Origin: an uncultured Gemmatimonadales bacterium
GTDB lineage: Bacteria; Gemmatimonadota; Gemmatimonadetes; Gemmatimonadales; Gemmatimonadaceae
Direction of reading: 5' to 3'
Assembly: GCA_963851265.1 (NCBI GenBank)
Contig: CAWKNZ010000002.1
Span: forward strand, 608,001-672,000
DNA: 64,000 bases
Shown one piece after another: positions 24,516 through 31,405 of the stretch; positions within the stretch are counted from its first letter, which is position 1, and each line of letters opens with the position of its first letter. The translations under genes and the position numbers were made by a program. A model generated the notes under the pieces. The model did no database searches, had not been told where the DNA came from, and saw only the letters and a program-made list of their open reading frames with translations.

Positions 24516-24738
24516 CCGCCGGGCTTGGCGTGCGGTGTATGTTGTAGGAGAGTTGTAGGAGAACCGACCGGCGCGACCGCGCCGCCGGACCGGCGTCCCC
24601 GCGGCCGGGGCGACGGTGCTTTGCGTGCCGCGCGGCGCCACTCGCGCCGGAGGTCATCGTGAAGGTCACGCCGACCGCCCGGAGGCTGGGCATCATACGC
24701 AGGCTGAGCCACGCCGGGGCCCTTCATGGGAGGACGGC

Positions 24739-25290
24739 ATGAAGGGCCCGGCATGCCTCGCGCTCAACGCGTCCTACGAGCCGCTCACCGTCACGCCGAT
24801 GCGCCGCGCCGTGCGCCTCGTGCTCGAGGGCAAGGCCGAGATCGTCGAGCAGGATGGCGCCGACGTCCGCGCCGGCCTGCTGTCGATGCCGCGTCCCGCC
24901 GTGATCCGCCTGAAGAAGTTCGTCCACGTGCCGCGCAAGTTCCGCCGGCAGGTGACCAACGTCTTCCTGTTCTCGCGCGACCGCCGCACCTGCCAGTACT
25001 GCGGCCGCCCCGAAGCCGAACTGCGCCCGCGCGAGTTCCTCACGCGCGACCACGTCACGCCGCTCTCCCGCGGCGGCGCCAACACGTGGGAGAACTGCGT
25101 CACGGCGTGCAGCACGTGCAACACCCGAAAGGGCAGTCGGACGACGGTGGAGGCGCACATGCCGCTGCTCTCCACGCCCACCGAGCCACACCTGGTCTAC
25201 CTGGTGTGGGCCGTGCGGCGTCTGACGCCGCTTCAACGGCAGTACATCGTGCAGTTTTTCGGAGACGACGTCGCCGCGCTGTTGGAGTGA
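24739..25290 (+). CDS. HNH endonuclease (McrA-like, LNASYEPL family)
   Basis: LNASYEPL, RDRRTCQYCG, TRDHVTPLSRGG, NCVTACSTCNTRKG; GGAGG RBS. Confidence 0.9.
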   Translation: MKGPACLALNASYEPLTVTPMRRAVRLVLEGKAEIVEQDGADVRAGLLSMPRPAVIRLKKFVHVPRKFRRQVTNVFLFSRDRRTCQYCGRPEAELRPREFLTRDHVTPLSRGGANTWENCVTACSTCNTRKGSRTTVEAHMPLLSTPTEPHLVYLVWAVRRLTPLQRQYIVQFFGDDVAALLE

Positions 25291-25340: not shown

Positions 25341-26030
25341 CTACGGTCGGAACGTCTCCGACCGCACCTCGAAGTGCCTCGTCTCCCCGCCCAGCACCCG
25401 CTCCGCCAGCACCTTCAGCCCGTTGCCTAACGCCGTGCCCGGGCTGCGACGCCCGCGCACCGCCGGCCGCAGCTCCCCGCGCAGCCAGCGCTCGACCTCG
25501 TCGAGGTCCGAGAGCGACAGCGTCTCGACGTCGATCACGACGTTGTAGTACGCCCGCTTCCCCCGCGGCGCGACGATCGCCGGGCGAAACGGCCGCTCGG
25601 CCGCCGCCGCCGCCTCGTCCAACTCGGCGAAGCGTCCCAGAAACGTGATCTGGTCGTCGACGATCCGCGCCACGTCGTACACCTTGGCCAGCGGGTCCAG
25701 CCGCACCACGACGTCCCACTCGCGCGTAGCCTGCAGGTCGTTGAACACGCGCCCCACCGTCCACAGCTCGGTCTTGTAGTGGATGCGCACGGGGAAGCTG
25801 TGGCCCAGCAGATCGCGCAACTCCCGGTCGTCCAGCACGCGTACGACGCGCACGAGCGGGCCCTCCGCCGCGAGCGACGCCTGTGCCGGCAGGCGGATCT
25901 CCGCACCCGCGCGCTGCGCGCCGGCCCGCGCCGGCCCGACCGCGGCGAGCGCTACGAGCAGCACTGCCAGCCCGAAGGCGAGCGAACGCCAGCGGCGCAC
26001 GTCGCGCCATCCCAGGACGGTCCGCCGCAC
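25341..26030 (-). CDS. Exported protein, DUF4390-like
   Basis: Signal-peptide-like N-terminus, beta-rich body (VRLDPLAKVYDV); last gene of a kinase/regulator operon. Start approximate. Confidence 0.55.
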   Translation of the reverse strand: MRRTVLGWRDVRRWRSLAFGLAVLLVALAAVGPARAGAQRAGAEIRLPAQASLAAEGPLVRVVRVLDDRELRDLLGHSFPVRIHYKTELWTVGRVFNDLQATREWDVVVRLDPLAKVYDVARIVDDQITFLGRFAELDEAAAAAERPFRPAIVAPRGKRAYYNVVIDVETLSLSDLDEVERWLRGELRPAVRGRRSPGTALGNGLKVLAERVLGGETRHFEVRSETFRP

Positions 26031-26035
26031 GTCGC

Positions 26036-29000
26036 CTAGAATCGGCGCTGCAGTCGCAGGAACACCGTCAACGGCCGGTCGGGCGCGGTCACGCTCTTGG
26101 CCAGGTACACGCCGAACGCGCCGATGTCGCGGCTGCCGTGCGGATGCCCGAAGTCGATGCCCGCGCCGAGATCGGCCAGCGTCGTCCCGAGCGCGGGGAG
26201 CGTGCCCGCCGCGTACTCGATCGACCCTTGACGCGGGCCGACGAGCCAGCCGCGCCCGGCGTCCGCGAACACCACCCACGTGAACTCGGTACGCAGCCCG
26301 CGCCGCACGCGCTCGCCACCCTCGTCGCCGGTGAACAGCCCCACACGCACGTCCGTCCGGTACTCGACCTGCCCGAGCGCGATCCGCTCGCACTGGGCCG
26401 GGTCGCCCGAGGGTTGCAGGCCGCGCACGCTGCAATCGGCCACGTCGAACCCGCCCGTGCCTGCGGCCTGACGGAAGCTGTACCCCGCAATCGCCCCCGG
26501 CCCGCTCACCGACAGACGTCGTTCCAGGGGCAGCGCGTCACCGTGCAGCCTCCCGCCCGCGACGAGTCGGAGGTTCAACTGCGCGTCGGGCGTGAGCCGG
26601 TTGTAGCGCCGCACGTCGAGGAAGCCGCGCCCGTACGCGCGGTGTCCGGGCGTCTCGTCGCGCGCGCCGGGCACCGGGCGCGTGCCGCGCTCGGCGATGT
26701 CGGCCGAGACCGGGGCGAAGTCGTCGAGCGTGCCCGTCCCGTACTCGTAGTCGGCGGCGACATACCATCCCGCCCACGGCCGGTTCACGTCGTTCCGCGT
26801 GTCGATCCGCACGTTGGCCGTGATCAGGTGCATGCGCCCCTCGTCCACCGCCGGATTCGGGCGCCACACCTCGCGGCCGCGCAGGATCGTCGCGGGGTTG
26901 AGCTGCGGGCGCGTGCGCCAGCGCTCGTCGGCGTAGCCCAGGGTCAGCGACGCGTCCGGGCCGAGGTCGGCGCCAGCCGAGACCGCCGCGCCGTGCCGCC
27001 CGTACCAGTCGCGGAAGTCGCGCCGCAGCAGGAATGAAGAGAGCCCCGTCTCCGTCGGTGACAGCTGCCAGTCCTCCACCGGCACGACGACGTCATACAG
27101 TCGGCCGCCCAAGCGCACGTGGCGCCTGCGCCCGACGCGCAGCTCCGCGCGCGCATCGTGTCCGCGGTGTTGCCGGTCCCACTCGAATTCGCCGGCCGTG
27201 CGGTACAGCCCCAGCACGTCGACCGAGAGACGCGCGTCGCGAGCGACCTGCGCCTCGAGCGTGGGCCCGACCACGATCGGAAGTCCTTCGGCCCGGTTGT
27301 ACGCGCCGCCCGACGCGAGCATGAACCCGGCATACGTGCGCGCGCTCGGCGCGCCACCCAGGCGAAAGCGCGCGCGCCGCTCGTCGGTCGCGTCGGGCGC
27401 CAGGGCGTCGGCGTCGCGGACGAGGGTGTCGCCGCGCTGCGCGACCGTCGCCGGCCGCCGGTCGATGCGCAGCTCGCCGCCGAGGAGGGCTTCCCGGCGT
27501 CCGTCCACCAGACCGCCGACGACGAGCACGTCGCCGTCGATCCGCGCACCCGGGCGAAAGGTGAGGTCGCCGTTCACCACCGTCAGTCGGCCCGTGACGC
27601 GCCCCGCCACCGTCACCGGCCCGCTCATAACGGCCACGTCGCCCGCGACCGTGCTGCCGGCGGGCACCACGAACCGGCCGCGCACGCGGAACGTCCCGGG
27701 CGCGTTGTACCGCGCGATGGCATCGGCGATACCGTCCGACGCGGCGTCCGGCACGGTGTCCGGACGTGCGGGCGCCGCGGCCGGCGACGTGGGAGGGTGC
27801 GCCTGGGCGTGCGCGGCCCGCGCCGGCGTGCCCGCGACTCCGACGGCGATGGCGCAGCCGAGCGTGATCGCCAGCCGCCGCATCCGTCGGTAGAGGTTGG
27901 GCCGATCGGTCCTGAGCCGCCGCGCCGCGTCGGCCACGTTGCCTCCCGCGGCCGACAGCGCGCGCACGATCAGCGTGCGTTCGTACGCGTCGAGCGCGTC
28001 GGCGAGCGCGATGTCGAGCCCGGCCGAGTCGGGCAGGGGACCGAGTTCACGCGGCGAGACGTCGGGGCCGCGCTCGTCCGCGTCGCCCGCCCCACCGCCG
28101 GCCCCGAGCACGCGGCGCGCATCCACCGCGCGCACCTCGCCGCCCGGTTGGAGGATCGCGAGCCGCTCCACCACGTTCGCCAGCTCGCGCACGTTGCCCG
28201 GCCACGGGTGTCGCTCCATCACCGCGAGCGCGTCGTCGCTCCACACCGGCGCGGGGCGCCCCGTCCGGGCGCGGTACAGGGACGAGAAGTGCCGCACGAG
28301 CAGGGGGACGTCGCCCGGTCGCTCGCGCAAGGGCGGCAGGTGGATCGGGATCACGTTGAGCCGGAAGAACAGGTCCTCGCGGAACGCGCCCTCGGCGACG
28401 GCGCGCGCGAGCTCCTTGTTCGTGGCCGACACGATCCGCACGTCCACCCGGATCGGCCGCGCGCCGCCCACGCGCTCCACCTCGCCCGCCTCGAGGGCGC
28501 GCAGCAGCTTCGCCTGCGCCTCCGCGCCGAGGTCGCCCACCTCGTCGAGGAACAGCGTGCCGGTGTGGGCCAGCTCGAAGCGCCCGATCCGTCGCTCGGT
28601 GGCGCCGGTGAACGCGCCGCGCTCGTGCCCGAACATCTCGCTCTCGACGAGGTCGCGCGGGATGGCTGCGCAGTTGACGCGCACGAACGGCCGCTCGCGC
28701 CGCGCGCTCGCGGCGTGCAGGCCGGCCGCGACCAGTTCCTTGCCCGTGCCGCTCTCGCCGGTCACCAGCACGCGCGCGTCGGTCGGCCCCACGCGCGCGA
28801 CCATCCCGCGCACCGCGGCCATCGCCGGGCTGTCGCCGATCATCGCCCCGCCGAGCCCGATCTCCTCGCGCAACGCGCGCGCCTCCCGCCGCGCGCGCCG
28901 CAGCTCGAGTGCGCTACCTAACGCCAGCAGGACGCCCTCGGGGGTGAGCGGCTTCTCGAGGAAGGTGAACGCCCCGAGCTTCGTCGCGCGCACGGCGTCG

Positions 29001-29260
29001 CCGAGCGCGGCGCGCCCGCTCATCATCACCACCGGCAGGTCGGGCAGCTGCTCGCGAAGGCGCTCCAGCATCCCGAGCCCGTCGATCGCGCCGGGCATCA
29101 TCAGATCCACGAGCGCGACGTCGGGCTCCGCGGCGCGCACCGCGGCGAGGCCCGCCGTCGCGTCGGGCGCGTCGCGCACGTCGTACCCTTCGCCCGCGAG
29201 CAGCGCGCCGACCATCCGCCGGATGTTCGGCTCGTCGTCGACGATCAGGACACTCGGCAC
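26036..29260 (-). CDS. Sigma-54 response regulator (REC-AAA+-HTH) fused in frame to signal peptide + bactofilin-like repeats + outer-membrane beta-barrel
   Basis: DD..D..K receiver, GESGTGKE, GAFTGA, WPGNVREL, Fis-type HTH; then MRRLAITLGCAIAVGVAGTPARAAHA, VAGDVAV..GPVTVAGRVTG repeats, YNRAEGL, C-terminal FLRLQRRF. Confidence 0.85.
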   Translation of the reverse strand: MPSVLIVDDEPNIRRMVGALLAGEGYDVRDAPDATAGLAAVRAAEPDVALVDLMMPGAIDGLGMLERLREQLPDLPVVMMSGRAALGDAVRATKLGAFTFLEKPLTPEGVLLALGSALELRRARREARALREEIGLGGAMIGDSPAMAAVRGMVARVGPTDARVLVTGESGTGKELVAAGLHAASARRERPFVRVNCAAIPRDLVESEMFGHERGAFTGATERRIGRFELAHTGTLFLDEVGDLGAEAQAKLLRALEAGEVERVGGARPIRVDVRIVSATNKELARAVAEGAFREDLFFRLNVIPIHLPPLRERPGDVPLLVRHFSSLYRARTGRPAPVWSDDALAVMERHPWPGNVRELANVVERLAILQPGGEVRAVDARRVLGAGGGAGDADERGPDVSPRELGPLPDSAGLDIALADALDAYERTLIVRALSAAGGNVADAARRLRTDRPNLYRRMRRLAITLGCAIAVGVAGTPARAAHAQAHPPTSPAAAPARPDTVPDAASDGIADAIARYNAPGTFRVRGRFVVPAGSTVAGDVAVMSGPVTVAGRVTGRLTVVNGDLTFRPGARIDGDVLVVGGLVDGRREALLGGELRIDRRPATVAQRGDTLVRDADALAPDATDERRARFRLGGAPSARTYAGFMLASGGAYNRAEGLPIVVGPTLEAQVARDARLSVDVLGLYRTAGEFEWDRQHRGHDARAELRVGRRRHVRLGGRLYDVVVPVEDWQLSPTETGLSSFLLRRDFRDWYGRHGAAVSAGADLGPDASLTLGYADERWRTRPQLNPATILRGREVWRPNPAVDEGRMHLITANVRIDTRNDVNRPWAGWYVAADYEYGTGTLDDFAPVSADIAERGTRPVPGARDETPGHRAYGRGFLDVRRYNRLTPDAQLNLRLVAGGRLHGDALPLERRLSVSGPGAIAGYSFRQAAGTGGFDVADCSVRGLQPSGDPAQCERIALGQVEYRTDVRVGLFTGDEGGERVRRGLRTEFTWVVFADAGRGWLVGPRQGSIEYAAGTLPALGTTLADLGAGIDFGHPHGSRDIGAFGVYLAKSVTAPDRPLTVFLRLQRRF

Positions 29261-29273
29261 CGTCTACGCCGCG

Positions 29274-29909
29274 TCACCCATGGTCGGCCCGCAGCGCGGC
29301 CGACACGGCCGGCGCGGTCGGCGCGGGGGCTGCGATCCGGTCGGTGAGCAGTTGCGCCGAGTAGCGCTGCGCCTCGGAGATCCGCTCGACCTCGATCGCG
29401 ACTGCCTCGACCGCCTGCTCGATGCGCGCCAGGCGTGCCGCGGCCTCCGGCGCGAGCGCCGCCGTCGTCCCCGCGACGACGCGCCGGCCCGCGATCGCGC
29501 GCGAGATCACGAGCGCGATGAGAAACAGGAACGAGAAGACGATCGCGACCACCGGCACGACGCCGTCCGGCACGCCCTGCGGCCTGCGGTCGTGGTCCGT
29601 CGGCTGGAGCGTGGTTCGCACCATCTCCTGGATCTGGTCGCCGTCCAGCCCGACCTTCGGGTCGATCGTGATCGTCTTGCCGTCGGGGCCCGTCACGACG
29701 ATGCGCCCGCCGGGCTCCTTCACGACGCCCGTGTTCGTCCCCGCCTGCGACAGGTCGCGCGCGGCCTGCGCGGCCAGCCTCCCGGCCTCCCGCCCGGCTT
29801 GCGCCGCGTCGTGGGTCGCCTGGGCGAGGTCGGCCCGATCCTGCGTGCTGATCACCGGGGCCTCGGGACTGGCGGGAGGTGTTGGTTGCGAGATCAGACG
29901 AAAGTTCAT
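29274..29909 (-). CDS. Hypothetical single-pass membrane protein with C-terminal coiled coil
   Basis: One TM helix (VVAIVFSFLFLIALVI) then RLARIEQAVEAVAIEVERISEAQRY; overlaps the kinase stop. Confidence 0.75.
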   Translation of the reverse strand: MNFRLISQPTPPASPEAPVISTQDRADLAQATHDAAQAGREAGRLAAQAARDLSQAGTNTGVVKEPGGRIVVTGPDGKTITIDPKVGLDGDQIQEMVRTTLQPTDHDRRPQGVPDGVVPVVAIVFSFLFLIALVISRAIAGRRVVAGTTAALAPEAAARLARIEQAVEAVAIEVERISEAQRYSAQLLTDRIAAPAPTAPAVSAALRADHG

Positions 29910-31192
29910 GTACGTGTCTCTGAATGGTCGCCGTCCGGGACTGCCGGGGCACCGTGCACCGGCAGAATGAAACGGATCTCCGTCCCGCGCCCTACGGCAC
30001 TGACCGCGTCAACGTGTCCGCCGTGCGCCAGCACCGTCTGCCGCGCGATCGCCAGCCCCAGCCCCGTCCCGTGCGCCTTGTGCGTGACGTAGGGATCCCA
30101 GATGTGCGCGAGCTGCTCGGGCGCGATGCCGGCGCCCGTGTCACGCACCGCGAGTTCGACCGTTCCGTCCACGCGCCCCACGCGCACGTCCACCCGGCCC
30201 CCCGCCGCCGTCGCCTCGACGGCGTTGAGCAGCACGTTCGTGAGCGCCCGCGCCAGCGCGTCGTAGCGCCCCGGCACCAACGGCACGTCGGGCGCGACCT
30301 CCACGGACGCCTGCAGCGTCTCGGGCACGGTGGTCGCGGTCGCCCACCTCGCCAGCTCGCCCAGATCGACGTCGGCGAGCGGTCCATCGGGGAGCCGGCC
30401 GAACTGCGCGAACCCGCGGGCCATCGCCTCTAACCGCGCGGTCTCCGCCGCCAGCACCTCGACCGCCTCGGCCTGGCCGGGAACGGCGTCGCGCCGCAGC
30501 CGGTCCACCGCGAAGCGGATCGGCGTGAGCGGATTCTTGAGCTCGTGCGCCACGCGCCGCGCCGCCTCACGAAACGCCTCCGCCCGCTCGGCTTCGAGCG
30601 CGCGCTCGCGCCCCGCGGCCAGCTCGCGCGCCATCGTGCGCATCCGCCGTCGCAGCACGCGAAACTCCGGCGCGCCACGCGGCTCGGGCTCCTGCGGCAG
30701 CGGCGCCCCCTCCTGGACGAGCCCCGTCCAGCGCACCAGTTGCCCGAGCGGCCGCGACAGCTGCCGGCTGAGGTGCCCCGCCACGCGCGACGCGACGAGC
30801 GTGAGTCCGGCGACGAGCAGCGCCCCGCCCGCAAGCAGCACGCGCGCCACTCGCGGGGCCACGTAGCTGTACCGGCGGGACAGCTCGAGCGACGCGCGCA
30901 GCTCCTGCGCGTGCGCGTCGACCGCCCGGTCGAGCGCGCGGCGCTCGACCGGGGTGAGCGGGCGCGTCCTCCGCGGGTCGGCCGCGGCGCGCGCCGCGGC
31001 GAGCGCCACCTCGCCCGTGGCCGCTGCACGCTCCCACGCGACGCCGCCGCTCAGGAGCGGCACCGCGCGCGCGATCGCGCCCGTCCACGCGAGGGTTAAC
31101 AGCACCGACGGGCAGACGGCGAACAGCAGCAGGATGGCGAAGAGGCGCGCCCGATACGACAGCCGGAGCGGGCGGAGCCGAGTGCGGATCAC
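29906..31192 (-). CDS. Membrane sensor histidine kinase (NtrY-like)
   Basis: Two TM helices, HAMP, ARRVAHELKNPLTPI, NAVEA, DTGAGI, GTGLGL. Start approximate. Confidence 0.9.
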   Translation of the reverse strand: MIRTRLRPLRLSYRARLFAILLLFAVCPSVLLTLAWTGAIARAVPLLSGGVAWERAAATGEVALAAARAAADPRRTRPLTPVERRALDRAVDAHAQELRASLELSRRYSYVAPRVARVLLAGGALLVAGLTLVASRVAGHLSRQLSRPLGQLVRWTGLVQEGAPLPQEPEPRGAPEFRVLRRRMRTMARELAAGRERALEAERAEAFREAARRVAHELKNPLTPIRFAVDRLRRDAVPGQAEAVEVLAAETARLEAMARGFAQFGRLPDGPLADVDLGELARWATATTVPETLQASVEVAPDVPLVPGRYDALARALTNVLLNAVEATAAGGRVDVRVGRVDGTVELAVRDTGAGIAPEQLAHIWDPYVTHKAHGTGLGLAIARQTVLAHGGHVDAVSAVGRGTEIRFILPVHGAPAVPDGDHSETRT

Positions 31193-31222
31193 GGGCGGAC
31201 GCGGGGCAGACGCGGGGGCGAC

Positions 31223-31259
31223 CGCGCGGCAGCGCGCGGCAGCGCGCGGCAGCGCGCGG
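31223..31259. repeat. 10-bp tandem repeat (CGCGCGGCAG) x3.7
   Basis: Read directly; lies in the divergent intergenic region between the kinase and the acyl-CoA ligase. Confidence 0.85.
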
Positions 31260-31405
31260 GGCCAACGGTGCAGGCAACTTAGGGTTCGGACGCCGCGTTC
31301 GGACCGGACCGTGCAGGGGCGCGCGTGTCGCGCTTTACCCCACTCTGGCACGGGGTTACCCTTCGCACGCGATATGGCACGCTTCCGTCCGCGCACGACC
31401 ACCTG

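Follow-up and report, generated by a model that had tools for sequence, protein, structure and literature searches.

The window analysed in this study is a 64,000-nucleotide stretch of an uncultured Gemmatimonadales bacterium (assembly GCA_963851265.1, contig CAWKNZ010000002.1, positions 608,001 to 672,000). On its minus strand, read from 29260 to 26036, lies a single open reading frame (ORF) that encodes an activator of sigma-54-dependent transcription and, behind an internal export signal, an outer-membrane protein. One would not expect a transcription factor of the cytoplasm and a barrel of the outer membrane to share a chain. Going by its named relatives, the locus belongs to Gemmatimonadaceae. 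The frame begins with GTG and comprises 1074 codons with zero internal stops, whereas the plus strand has stops. An earlier first-pass annotation had reported this uninterrupted frame, which we confirm; the same stop-free frame is kept in 5/5 genomes of the genus at 84-88% identity. The following features were assigned, the neighbouring genes being given last:

26036..29260, minus strand: fused ORF, 1074 residues; sigma-54 activator, internal signal and Omp85-fold outer-membrane protein
28931..29251, minus strand: receiver domain, residues 4-110 (Pfam Response_reg PF00072, E 3e-25, above cut-off)
28121..28843, minus strand: AAA+ sigma-54 interaction domain and lid, residues 140-380 (PF00158, E 5e-68, and PF25601; above cut-off)
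27875..27985, minus strand: Fis-type helix-turn-helix (HTH; HTH_8), residues 426-462 (PF02954, above cut-off)
27806..27883, minus strand: internal signal of the Sec/signal peptidase I type, residues 460-485, predicted cut A485/Q486 (own pattern and hydropathy scoring)
27416..27733, minus strand: bactofilin-like beta-repeat domain, predicted periplasmic, residues about 510-615 (PF04519, E 5e-4, below cut-off, and model)
26039..27337, minus strand: 16-stranded Omp85-fold beta-barrel, residues about 642-1074, terminal Phe, no POTRA (model and structural search)
29906..31288, minus strand: sensor histidine kinase, cognate; two transmembrane (TM) segments, HAMP, HisKA and HATPase_c (Pfam; start codon uncertain)
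29274..29909, minus strand: protein with one TM segment, encoded between kinase and activator and overlapping the kinase stop; matches no known family
25341..26027, minus strand: exported protein, start codon uncertain; resemblance to DUF4390/PlrP is a lead only

The N-terminal part is an NtrC-family sigma-54 enhancer-binding response regulator. Its AAA+ region (Pfam limits: Sigma54_activat at residues 140-307, AAA lid at 312-380) has Walker A at residue 168, GAFTGA at 215-220 and Walker B at 236; the phospho-acceptor D52 and K103 of the receiver are invariant across an alignment of 53 fused proteins, and the Fis-type HTH completes the set. The first-pass annotation spoke of a complete NtrC/NtrX-type activator. 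Completeness holds, with all domains above cut-off and GAFTGA intact, but neither equivalog name does: the activator scores 402.6 with the NtrX model NF051870 (cut-off 600) and 434.1 with the NtrC model TIGR01818 (cut-off 558.6). Several relatives of the activator nonetheless carry the name NtrX in a source. The sigma-54 gene rpoN is present in the genome of the window. A regulon search in this genome with enhancer and promoter matrices returned 19 weak enhancer-promoter pairs, none of them convincing.

An AlphaFold model of the mature C-terminal part (residues 486-1074, built with 110 relatives) reached a predicted local distance difference test (pLDDT) score of 87.9 and consists of short-strand repeats followed by 16 long strands, according to our own count from the elements listed for the model. 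Foldseek ranked BamA first for this model, and the best matches in a wide structural search were Sam50 (Z 21.8), BamA (21.4) and TamA (20.7), with porins at 13 or less. The C-terminal half, which had been taken for a beta-barrel from its letters, is thus modelled as a 16-stranded barrel of the BamA/TamA/Sam50 fold and belongs to the Omp85 superfamily; the Pfam Omp85 match (residues 730-1042) stays below cut-off with 21.0 bits against 24. Z scores of 19-22 and the terminal Phe add to the likeness. In contrast to BamA and TamA, no Pfam match to POTRA domains was found before the barrel, where the model shows short-strand repeats, and identity is 10-19%; the barrel is therefore not assigned to the insertases, and insertase activity is not implied. 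The repeats had been called bactofilin-like before, and a weak Pfam match at residues 522-579, below cut-off, agrees with the short-strand repeats of the model. They are absent from the fusions outside the window's genus (P0151, P0164, P0272-P0329, P0361) and, because they are also missing from some split relatives (L018, L020), are dispensable. In the full-length model (pLDDT 74, predicted template modelling score 0.47) residues 453-476 form one helix that runs from the end of the HTH into the signal's hydrophobic core, with modest confidence. The genome of the window has zero other full copies of the barrel and three other Omp85 genes above cut-off. The beta-repeat domain occurs in one more protein of this genome (L080, G000:C2:1348518-1348946; E 5e-18), which has no barrel match to the family.

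The two halves meet in a predicted export signal. Met460 (ATG at 27883), proposed in the first-pass annotation as the first residue of a Sec-type signal, does open one; it ends at A485/Q486, and the last basic helix of the HTH doubles as its basic N-terminal region (n-region). Signals were scored by an in-house pattern plus hydropathy. A small-x-small/Q site follows the hydrophobic stretch in 73/76 fused sequences, compared with 3/2621 control windows from regulator halves. In the alignment of 53 fused proteins the conservation of A485 and Q486 is 90% or more, and the hydrophobic region (h-region) has no consensus; over six DNA loci the signal segment has 44% identity, in-frame indels and a ratio of nonsynonymous to synonymous substitution (dN/dS) of 0.58. 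The internal signals are as hydrophobic as the genome's own signals. Among genes of at least 400 residues in the window's genome, by crude gene calling, the fused gene is the sole case of an internal Met-signal-AxAQ pattern. The HTH Met is present in 74/76 fusions and equally in split relatives (47/50), where it is not a start. In the predicted signals of the window's genome, A-x-A is followed by Gln more often than by any other residue (17/56), a habit resembling the Q-rule, and Gln directly follows the signal in 48/49 split barrel genes; the main text of the Q-rule paper (PMC5837995) does not contain 'Gemmat'. Cys occurs in the signal segment of 42/76 fused and 11/49 split proteins and of 64/201 genome signals, kin not being independent; in three fused groups it clusters at two places a helical turn from each other, with 9 proteins having it at position 10 and 21 at position 14 when counted from the HTH Met.

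Over the six DNA loci dN/dS is 0.098 in the receiver, 0.055 in the AAA+ domain and 0.037 in the HTH, 0.21 in the repeats and 0.18 in the barrel. At the level of sequence, the fusion is confirmed as real, conserved and under selection, and is no artefact. The full form with repeats and barrel was found in nine database proteins, the window's own counted, with lengths of 1063-1121 residues. In a family sample of 401 genomes the fused junction occurs in at least 28 (5 of g1, 2 of g18, 10 of g54 and 11 of g83), a floor set by strict search cut-offs and by genes interrupted at other places or truncated at the end of a contig. Fusion was seen in 10/10 genomes checked of a second genus and in 11/12 of a third. 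A profile search of 1.84 billion representatives added two further fusions without the repeat domain among the best 150, and the follow-up arrived at 70 fused proteins (one a near duplicate), all of which pass from the HTH end into a hydrophobic stretch. At E 1e-226, a search of a phylum sample of 401, blind to the barrel-only form, gave no other hit with both the window's form and an uninterrupted frame. The view of a genus-specific fusion was overturned by barrel-only fusions in other lineages. The in-frame fusion, whose conservation the first-pass annotation had proposed to check, is conserved in the genus and recurs beyond it; what that annotation missed is the recurrence in other lineages and a lost sigma-54 promoter. 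Because kin are not independent, these counts describe spread rather than statistical support. The counts of 28 fused genomes and of 49 split loci and the 110-row tree given below include three loci (L017, L042, L103) whose genomes are flagged as unpublished; none of the conclusions depends on these alone. In deposited annotation the fused proteins are plain sigma-54 regulators or NtrX, a warning that such names hide exported proteins.

Most relatives keep two genes. Among loci of other genera in the first search, 25/25 end the activator a few residues past the last HTH helix and encode the barrel separately, behind a signal of its own. Because most relatives have this stop just after the HTH, the fusion is the derived state. 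The first-pass annotation had regarded such a stop in relatives as evidence against the fusion; most relatives do have it, but the fusion stands, because it is fixed in whole genera. A barrel start was assigned by hand in 49 split loci (one more is cut off by a contig end). The gap between activator and barrel is at least 120 nt in 26 of these and -4 to 101 nt in the other 23. Within the long gaps, [CG]GACAC, half of the palindrome GTGTC-N5-GACAC, was found in 23/26 loci (200 rounds of shuffling: mean 6, maximum 14) and a strict -24/-12 pattern in 21/26 (shuffles: mean 0.66, maximum 4). The looser pattern GG-N9-[TA]GC occurs in 25/26, with the site 47-52 nt before the barrel ATG, and this fixed spacing is the stronger evidence because the patterns were derived from the same loci. 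The palindrome is the upstream element, at a median distance of about 105 nt from the promoter in 19 loci. Palindrome and -24/-12 site are conserved across two families (L022-L029, L046-L060 and other split loci). They are the candidate enhancer and the candidate target promoter of the adjacent activator, and from position and established enhancer geometry we infer that this activator binds the palindrome. No sigma-54 promoter of this type was found in or near the fused loci.

The comparison of split and fused loci shows an ancestral locus in the order kinase, activator, palindrome with sigma-54 promoter and own start, barrel, exported protein. By the same comparison, a deletion took the activator stop, the promoter region and the barrel start, and joined the hydrophobic core of the barrel signal to the basic last helix of the HTH. 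The MRRL at the junction, read in the first-pass annotation as an evolved overlap of HTH and signal, is by its presence in split relatives the ancestral HTH end, with its Met in 47/50 of them; it was reused as n-region when the barrel's start and own n-region were deleted. The series of gaps suggests that a regulated target gene became a co-transcribed gene and then part of a fusion, by erosion, and the barrel protein is probably the former target of the activator. Twenty-two genomes with both split genes in one frame were considered for stop-codon read-through, which we rejected since each barrel has its own ATG and signal. In locus L036 (G059:C1, about 2790-2900) the activator gene has a frameshift just ahead of the end of the HTH, which is a sequencing error or marks a broken gene.

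Trees of activator and barrel (110 rows, with redundant g83 rows and several partial rows omitted, and 38 rows) require six changes of state between fused and split. A single clade of all fused rows was rejected in the approximately unbiased test (p 1e-97), as were single clades of g1 with g18/g54 (p 3e-6) and of g1 with the large barrel-only clade (p 5e-4), groups that were named after tree inspection. The g1 fusion is separate also because its sister (L046-L048) retains palindrome, promoter and own start, which fission could not rebuild. The test did not reject g18/g54 as one clade with the barrel-only group and the split members of that group (p 0.18), so six origins cannot be claimed; on these trees the number of fusion origins is hence 2 to 6. 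One split genome, G400 (L131, G400:C39, about 2850-2950), shows a stop/start overlap, and its barrel signal has no basic n-region. It is nested in a fused clade with support of 100/100, and a tree excluding it was rejected (p 1.5e-4). By its position, G400 is one reversion to two genes, which implies that the halves work as separate proteins.

Two models were offered in the first-pass annotation, a polyprotein cut by signal peptidase or an internal start, and we consider them the right pair. The likelier, and in our judgement the probable one, is that a single chain is cut by signal peptidase I into activator and barrel, i.e. a predicted polyprotein. After cytoplasmic folding of the activator part, Sec would be engaged by the internal signal, composed of the basic HTH end, the hydrophobic core and small-x-Ala/Gln, so that the barrel part crosses the inner membrane, is cut at A485/Q486 and is assembled in the outer membrane. 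The activator would be left with a hydrophobic tail of 22 residues, either as inner-membrane anchor or to be trimmed by a site-2 protease. The effect would be a fixed 1:1 co-production of the activator and its probable former target. A working activator must arise from the full chain, because there is no stop (nor a conserved nearby one in the other frames) and yet purifying selection is strong. Genes for two signal peptidase I enzymes and an M50 protease are present in the window's genome. FbcH of Bradyrhizobium japonicum is a cytochrome b/c1 precursor encoded by one ORF, from which signal peptidase separates two inner-membrane subunits of one complex. The fused gene is FbcH-like in being a single ORF with a conserved internal Sec signal and -3/-1 site, in which two proteins, separate elsewhere, are joined via the signal peptide of the second; cleavage is here predicted only. 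It differs in that the parts are a cytoplasmic DNA-binding ATPase and an outer-membrane barrel, and in that the n-region is the HTH's own helix. A long folded N-terminus before an export segment has a parallel in RodZ, for which one report (PMC5674894) describes a hydrophobic segment behind a folded cytoplasmic domain that is targeted by SecA, helped by upstream basic residues, and directs C-terminal export. However, RodZ as described there is an inner-membrane protein with an internal TM domain, whereas the present segment is followed by a signal peptidase site and has a barrel as its passenger. For RseP, two reports (PMC10470546, PMC4597795) describe the cutting of signal-peptide remnants and a tolerance of a large tag at the N-terminus.

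The alternative that is unlikely but deserves most attention is that of nested products, in which most barrel arises from an internal start at Met460 and the full-length chain supplies the activator, its own barrel part being exported and cut or degraded; both routes can coexist. A textbook signal peptide begins at Met460, and in the two fused proteins without the HTH Met another Met stands five residues downstream, invariant in 36/36 of their clade; however, re-split G400, in which the barrel is read from a start in a different frame, has this second Met too, just as the first is kept in split relatives as a non-start. A Shine-Dalgarno sequence before Met460 is absent in 6/6 fused loci and present at 39/49 split barrel starts. 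Most signal-bearing genes of the genome nevertheless start without such a site (41/201 signal-defined starts have one), and the context of Met460 is G-poor and fairly open; because this genome seldom uses these sites, their absence is weak evidence. Its use as strong evidence was dropped; a first control had been uninformative (predicted starts 28.7%, internal ATGs 28.6%). Many starts in the genome have pyrimidine-rich, G-poor leaders. In a start classifier (cross-validated area under the curve 0.89) the junction ATG scored -0.40, internal ATGs -1.40, real starts +1.45 and the HTH Met of split loci -0.55, and because the junction ATG scores like the same codon in split relatives there is no sign of evolution toward a start. 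Synonymous conservation does not rise before Met460 (six loci), no internal sigma-54 site was seen, and none of the junctions inspected visibly has an own barrel start behind a read-through tail, though in-frame neighbours are common. The polyprotein nevertheless has several points to answer besides the scarce Shine-Dalgarno sites and the second Met. Five of six junction ATGs rank at the 72nd-89th percentile among internal ATGs. The h-region of the window's genus is not lengthened (median 18 uncharged residues, 17 in the closest split proteins), and in some fusions it comprises 10-12 uncharged residues, which is short for co-translational recognition and leaves stable inner-membrane tethering of the activator in doubt. 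Acidity past the cut site equals that of matched split proteins. As adaptations to the internal position, a generally longer h-region and an acidic stretch past the cut site were both rejected: the former holds in two other fused clades, where h-regions are of TM length (median 23 versus 15.5 in matched split proteins), and neither in the window's genus nor in the P0324-P0328 group, and the latter has a fused median of -2 against +1 in all split loci but -2 in matched barrel-only split ones.

An uncut chain that spans the envelope, with the activator in the cytoplasm, one TM helix and the barrel outside passing on a direct signal, is improbable. The joint helix of HTH and h-region in the model, the TM-length h-regions of the two clades and the recurrent Cys at positions 10 and 14 would suit it; the cut site is nevertheless retained in 73/76, the linker varies in length and sequence, and a normal kinase and phospho-acceptor are kept. 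Because of the retained cut site and the one lineage that was split again, and with most relatives split, the trans-envelope signalling module suggested in the first-pass annotation is unsupported. Programmed frameshifting or early release near the junction, giving a free activator, with in-frame reading giving the barrel precursor, would be a simple answer to the compartment problem and is highly improbable: in the five genus loci the +1 frame first reaches a stop at distances that bear no relation to one another, the +2 frame stays open for at least 170 codons, and neither a slippery run (by eye) nor synonymous constraint was seen. That the junction is an assembly error or a decaying, unselected fusion has a negligible chance, given its presence in all genus genomes and in the second and third genera and the purifying selection on both halves.

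If the polyprotein is indeed cut by signal peptidase, it is tempting to speculate, although we think it quite unlikely, that barrel export and cleavage are an obligatory maturation of the activator. The activator would be membrane-bound by the signal remnant and freed or activated only after Sec, signal peptidase and site-2 protease have acted, so that the sigma-54 regulon reads the export state of outer-membrane proteins; such a device could have arisen repeatedly, with the HTH end as a ready-made n-region. A transcription regulator made fused to an envelope protein and released by cleavage is reported for YtgCR of Chlamydia trachomatis (PMC6504234); there YtgR is the C-terminal repressor on an inner-membrane permease, whereas here an N-terminal sigma-54 activator has a Sec-exported outer-membrane partner. 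A literature search, with most subscription papers outside its coverage, found no description of the present fusion. Whole genera carry the fusion as a fixed trait; it has more than one origin, at one and the same residue, and was undone once. Own promoter, short gap, overlap, fusion and re-split form a natural series that tests the tolerance of signal peptides 460 residues into a chain and the origins of polyproteins, and the conserved promoter and palindrome are first candidates for what this regulator, itself conserved throughout the order, controls and where it binds.

In 14/14 regions the genes follow one another as kinase, activator, barrel and exported protein, as far as contigs reached. 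NtrY-type kinases have a PAS domain between HAMP and HisKA. In the kinase of the window, HAMP (residues 173-223) runs straight into HisKA (241-299) with no PAS match, and no NtrY model is among the best 25 of 84 matches; the earlier label NtrY-like is loose. The exported protein, directly downstream of the barrel in every locus mapped, had been called DUF4390-like, of which a lead stays: Atlas clusters (0.96) with 24-34% DUF4390 members point this way, but Pfam gave no match at E up to 5. In PlrP-PlrS-PlrR/NtrYX (PMC13001219), kinase, response regulator and a DUF4390-like exported protein likewise form one conserved cluster; the present locus differs in the sub-threshold NtrX score, the kinase without PAS match, the tentative DUF4390 lead and the barrel fused to the regulator. 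Matches to the single-TM protein (tblastn) were confined to the window's genus and one sister locus. Convergent on the operon lies an HNH endonuclease gene (24616-25290, plus strand), which is unusually conserved, with 91-98% in the genus and a position that is kept across the order.

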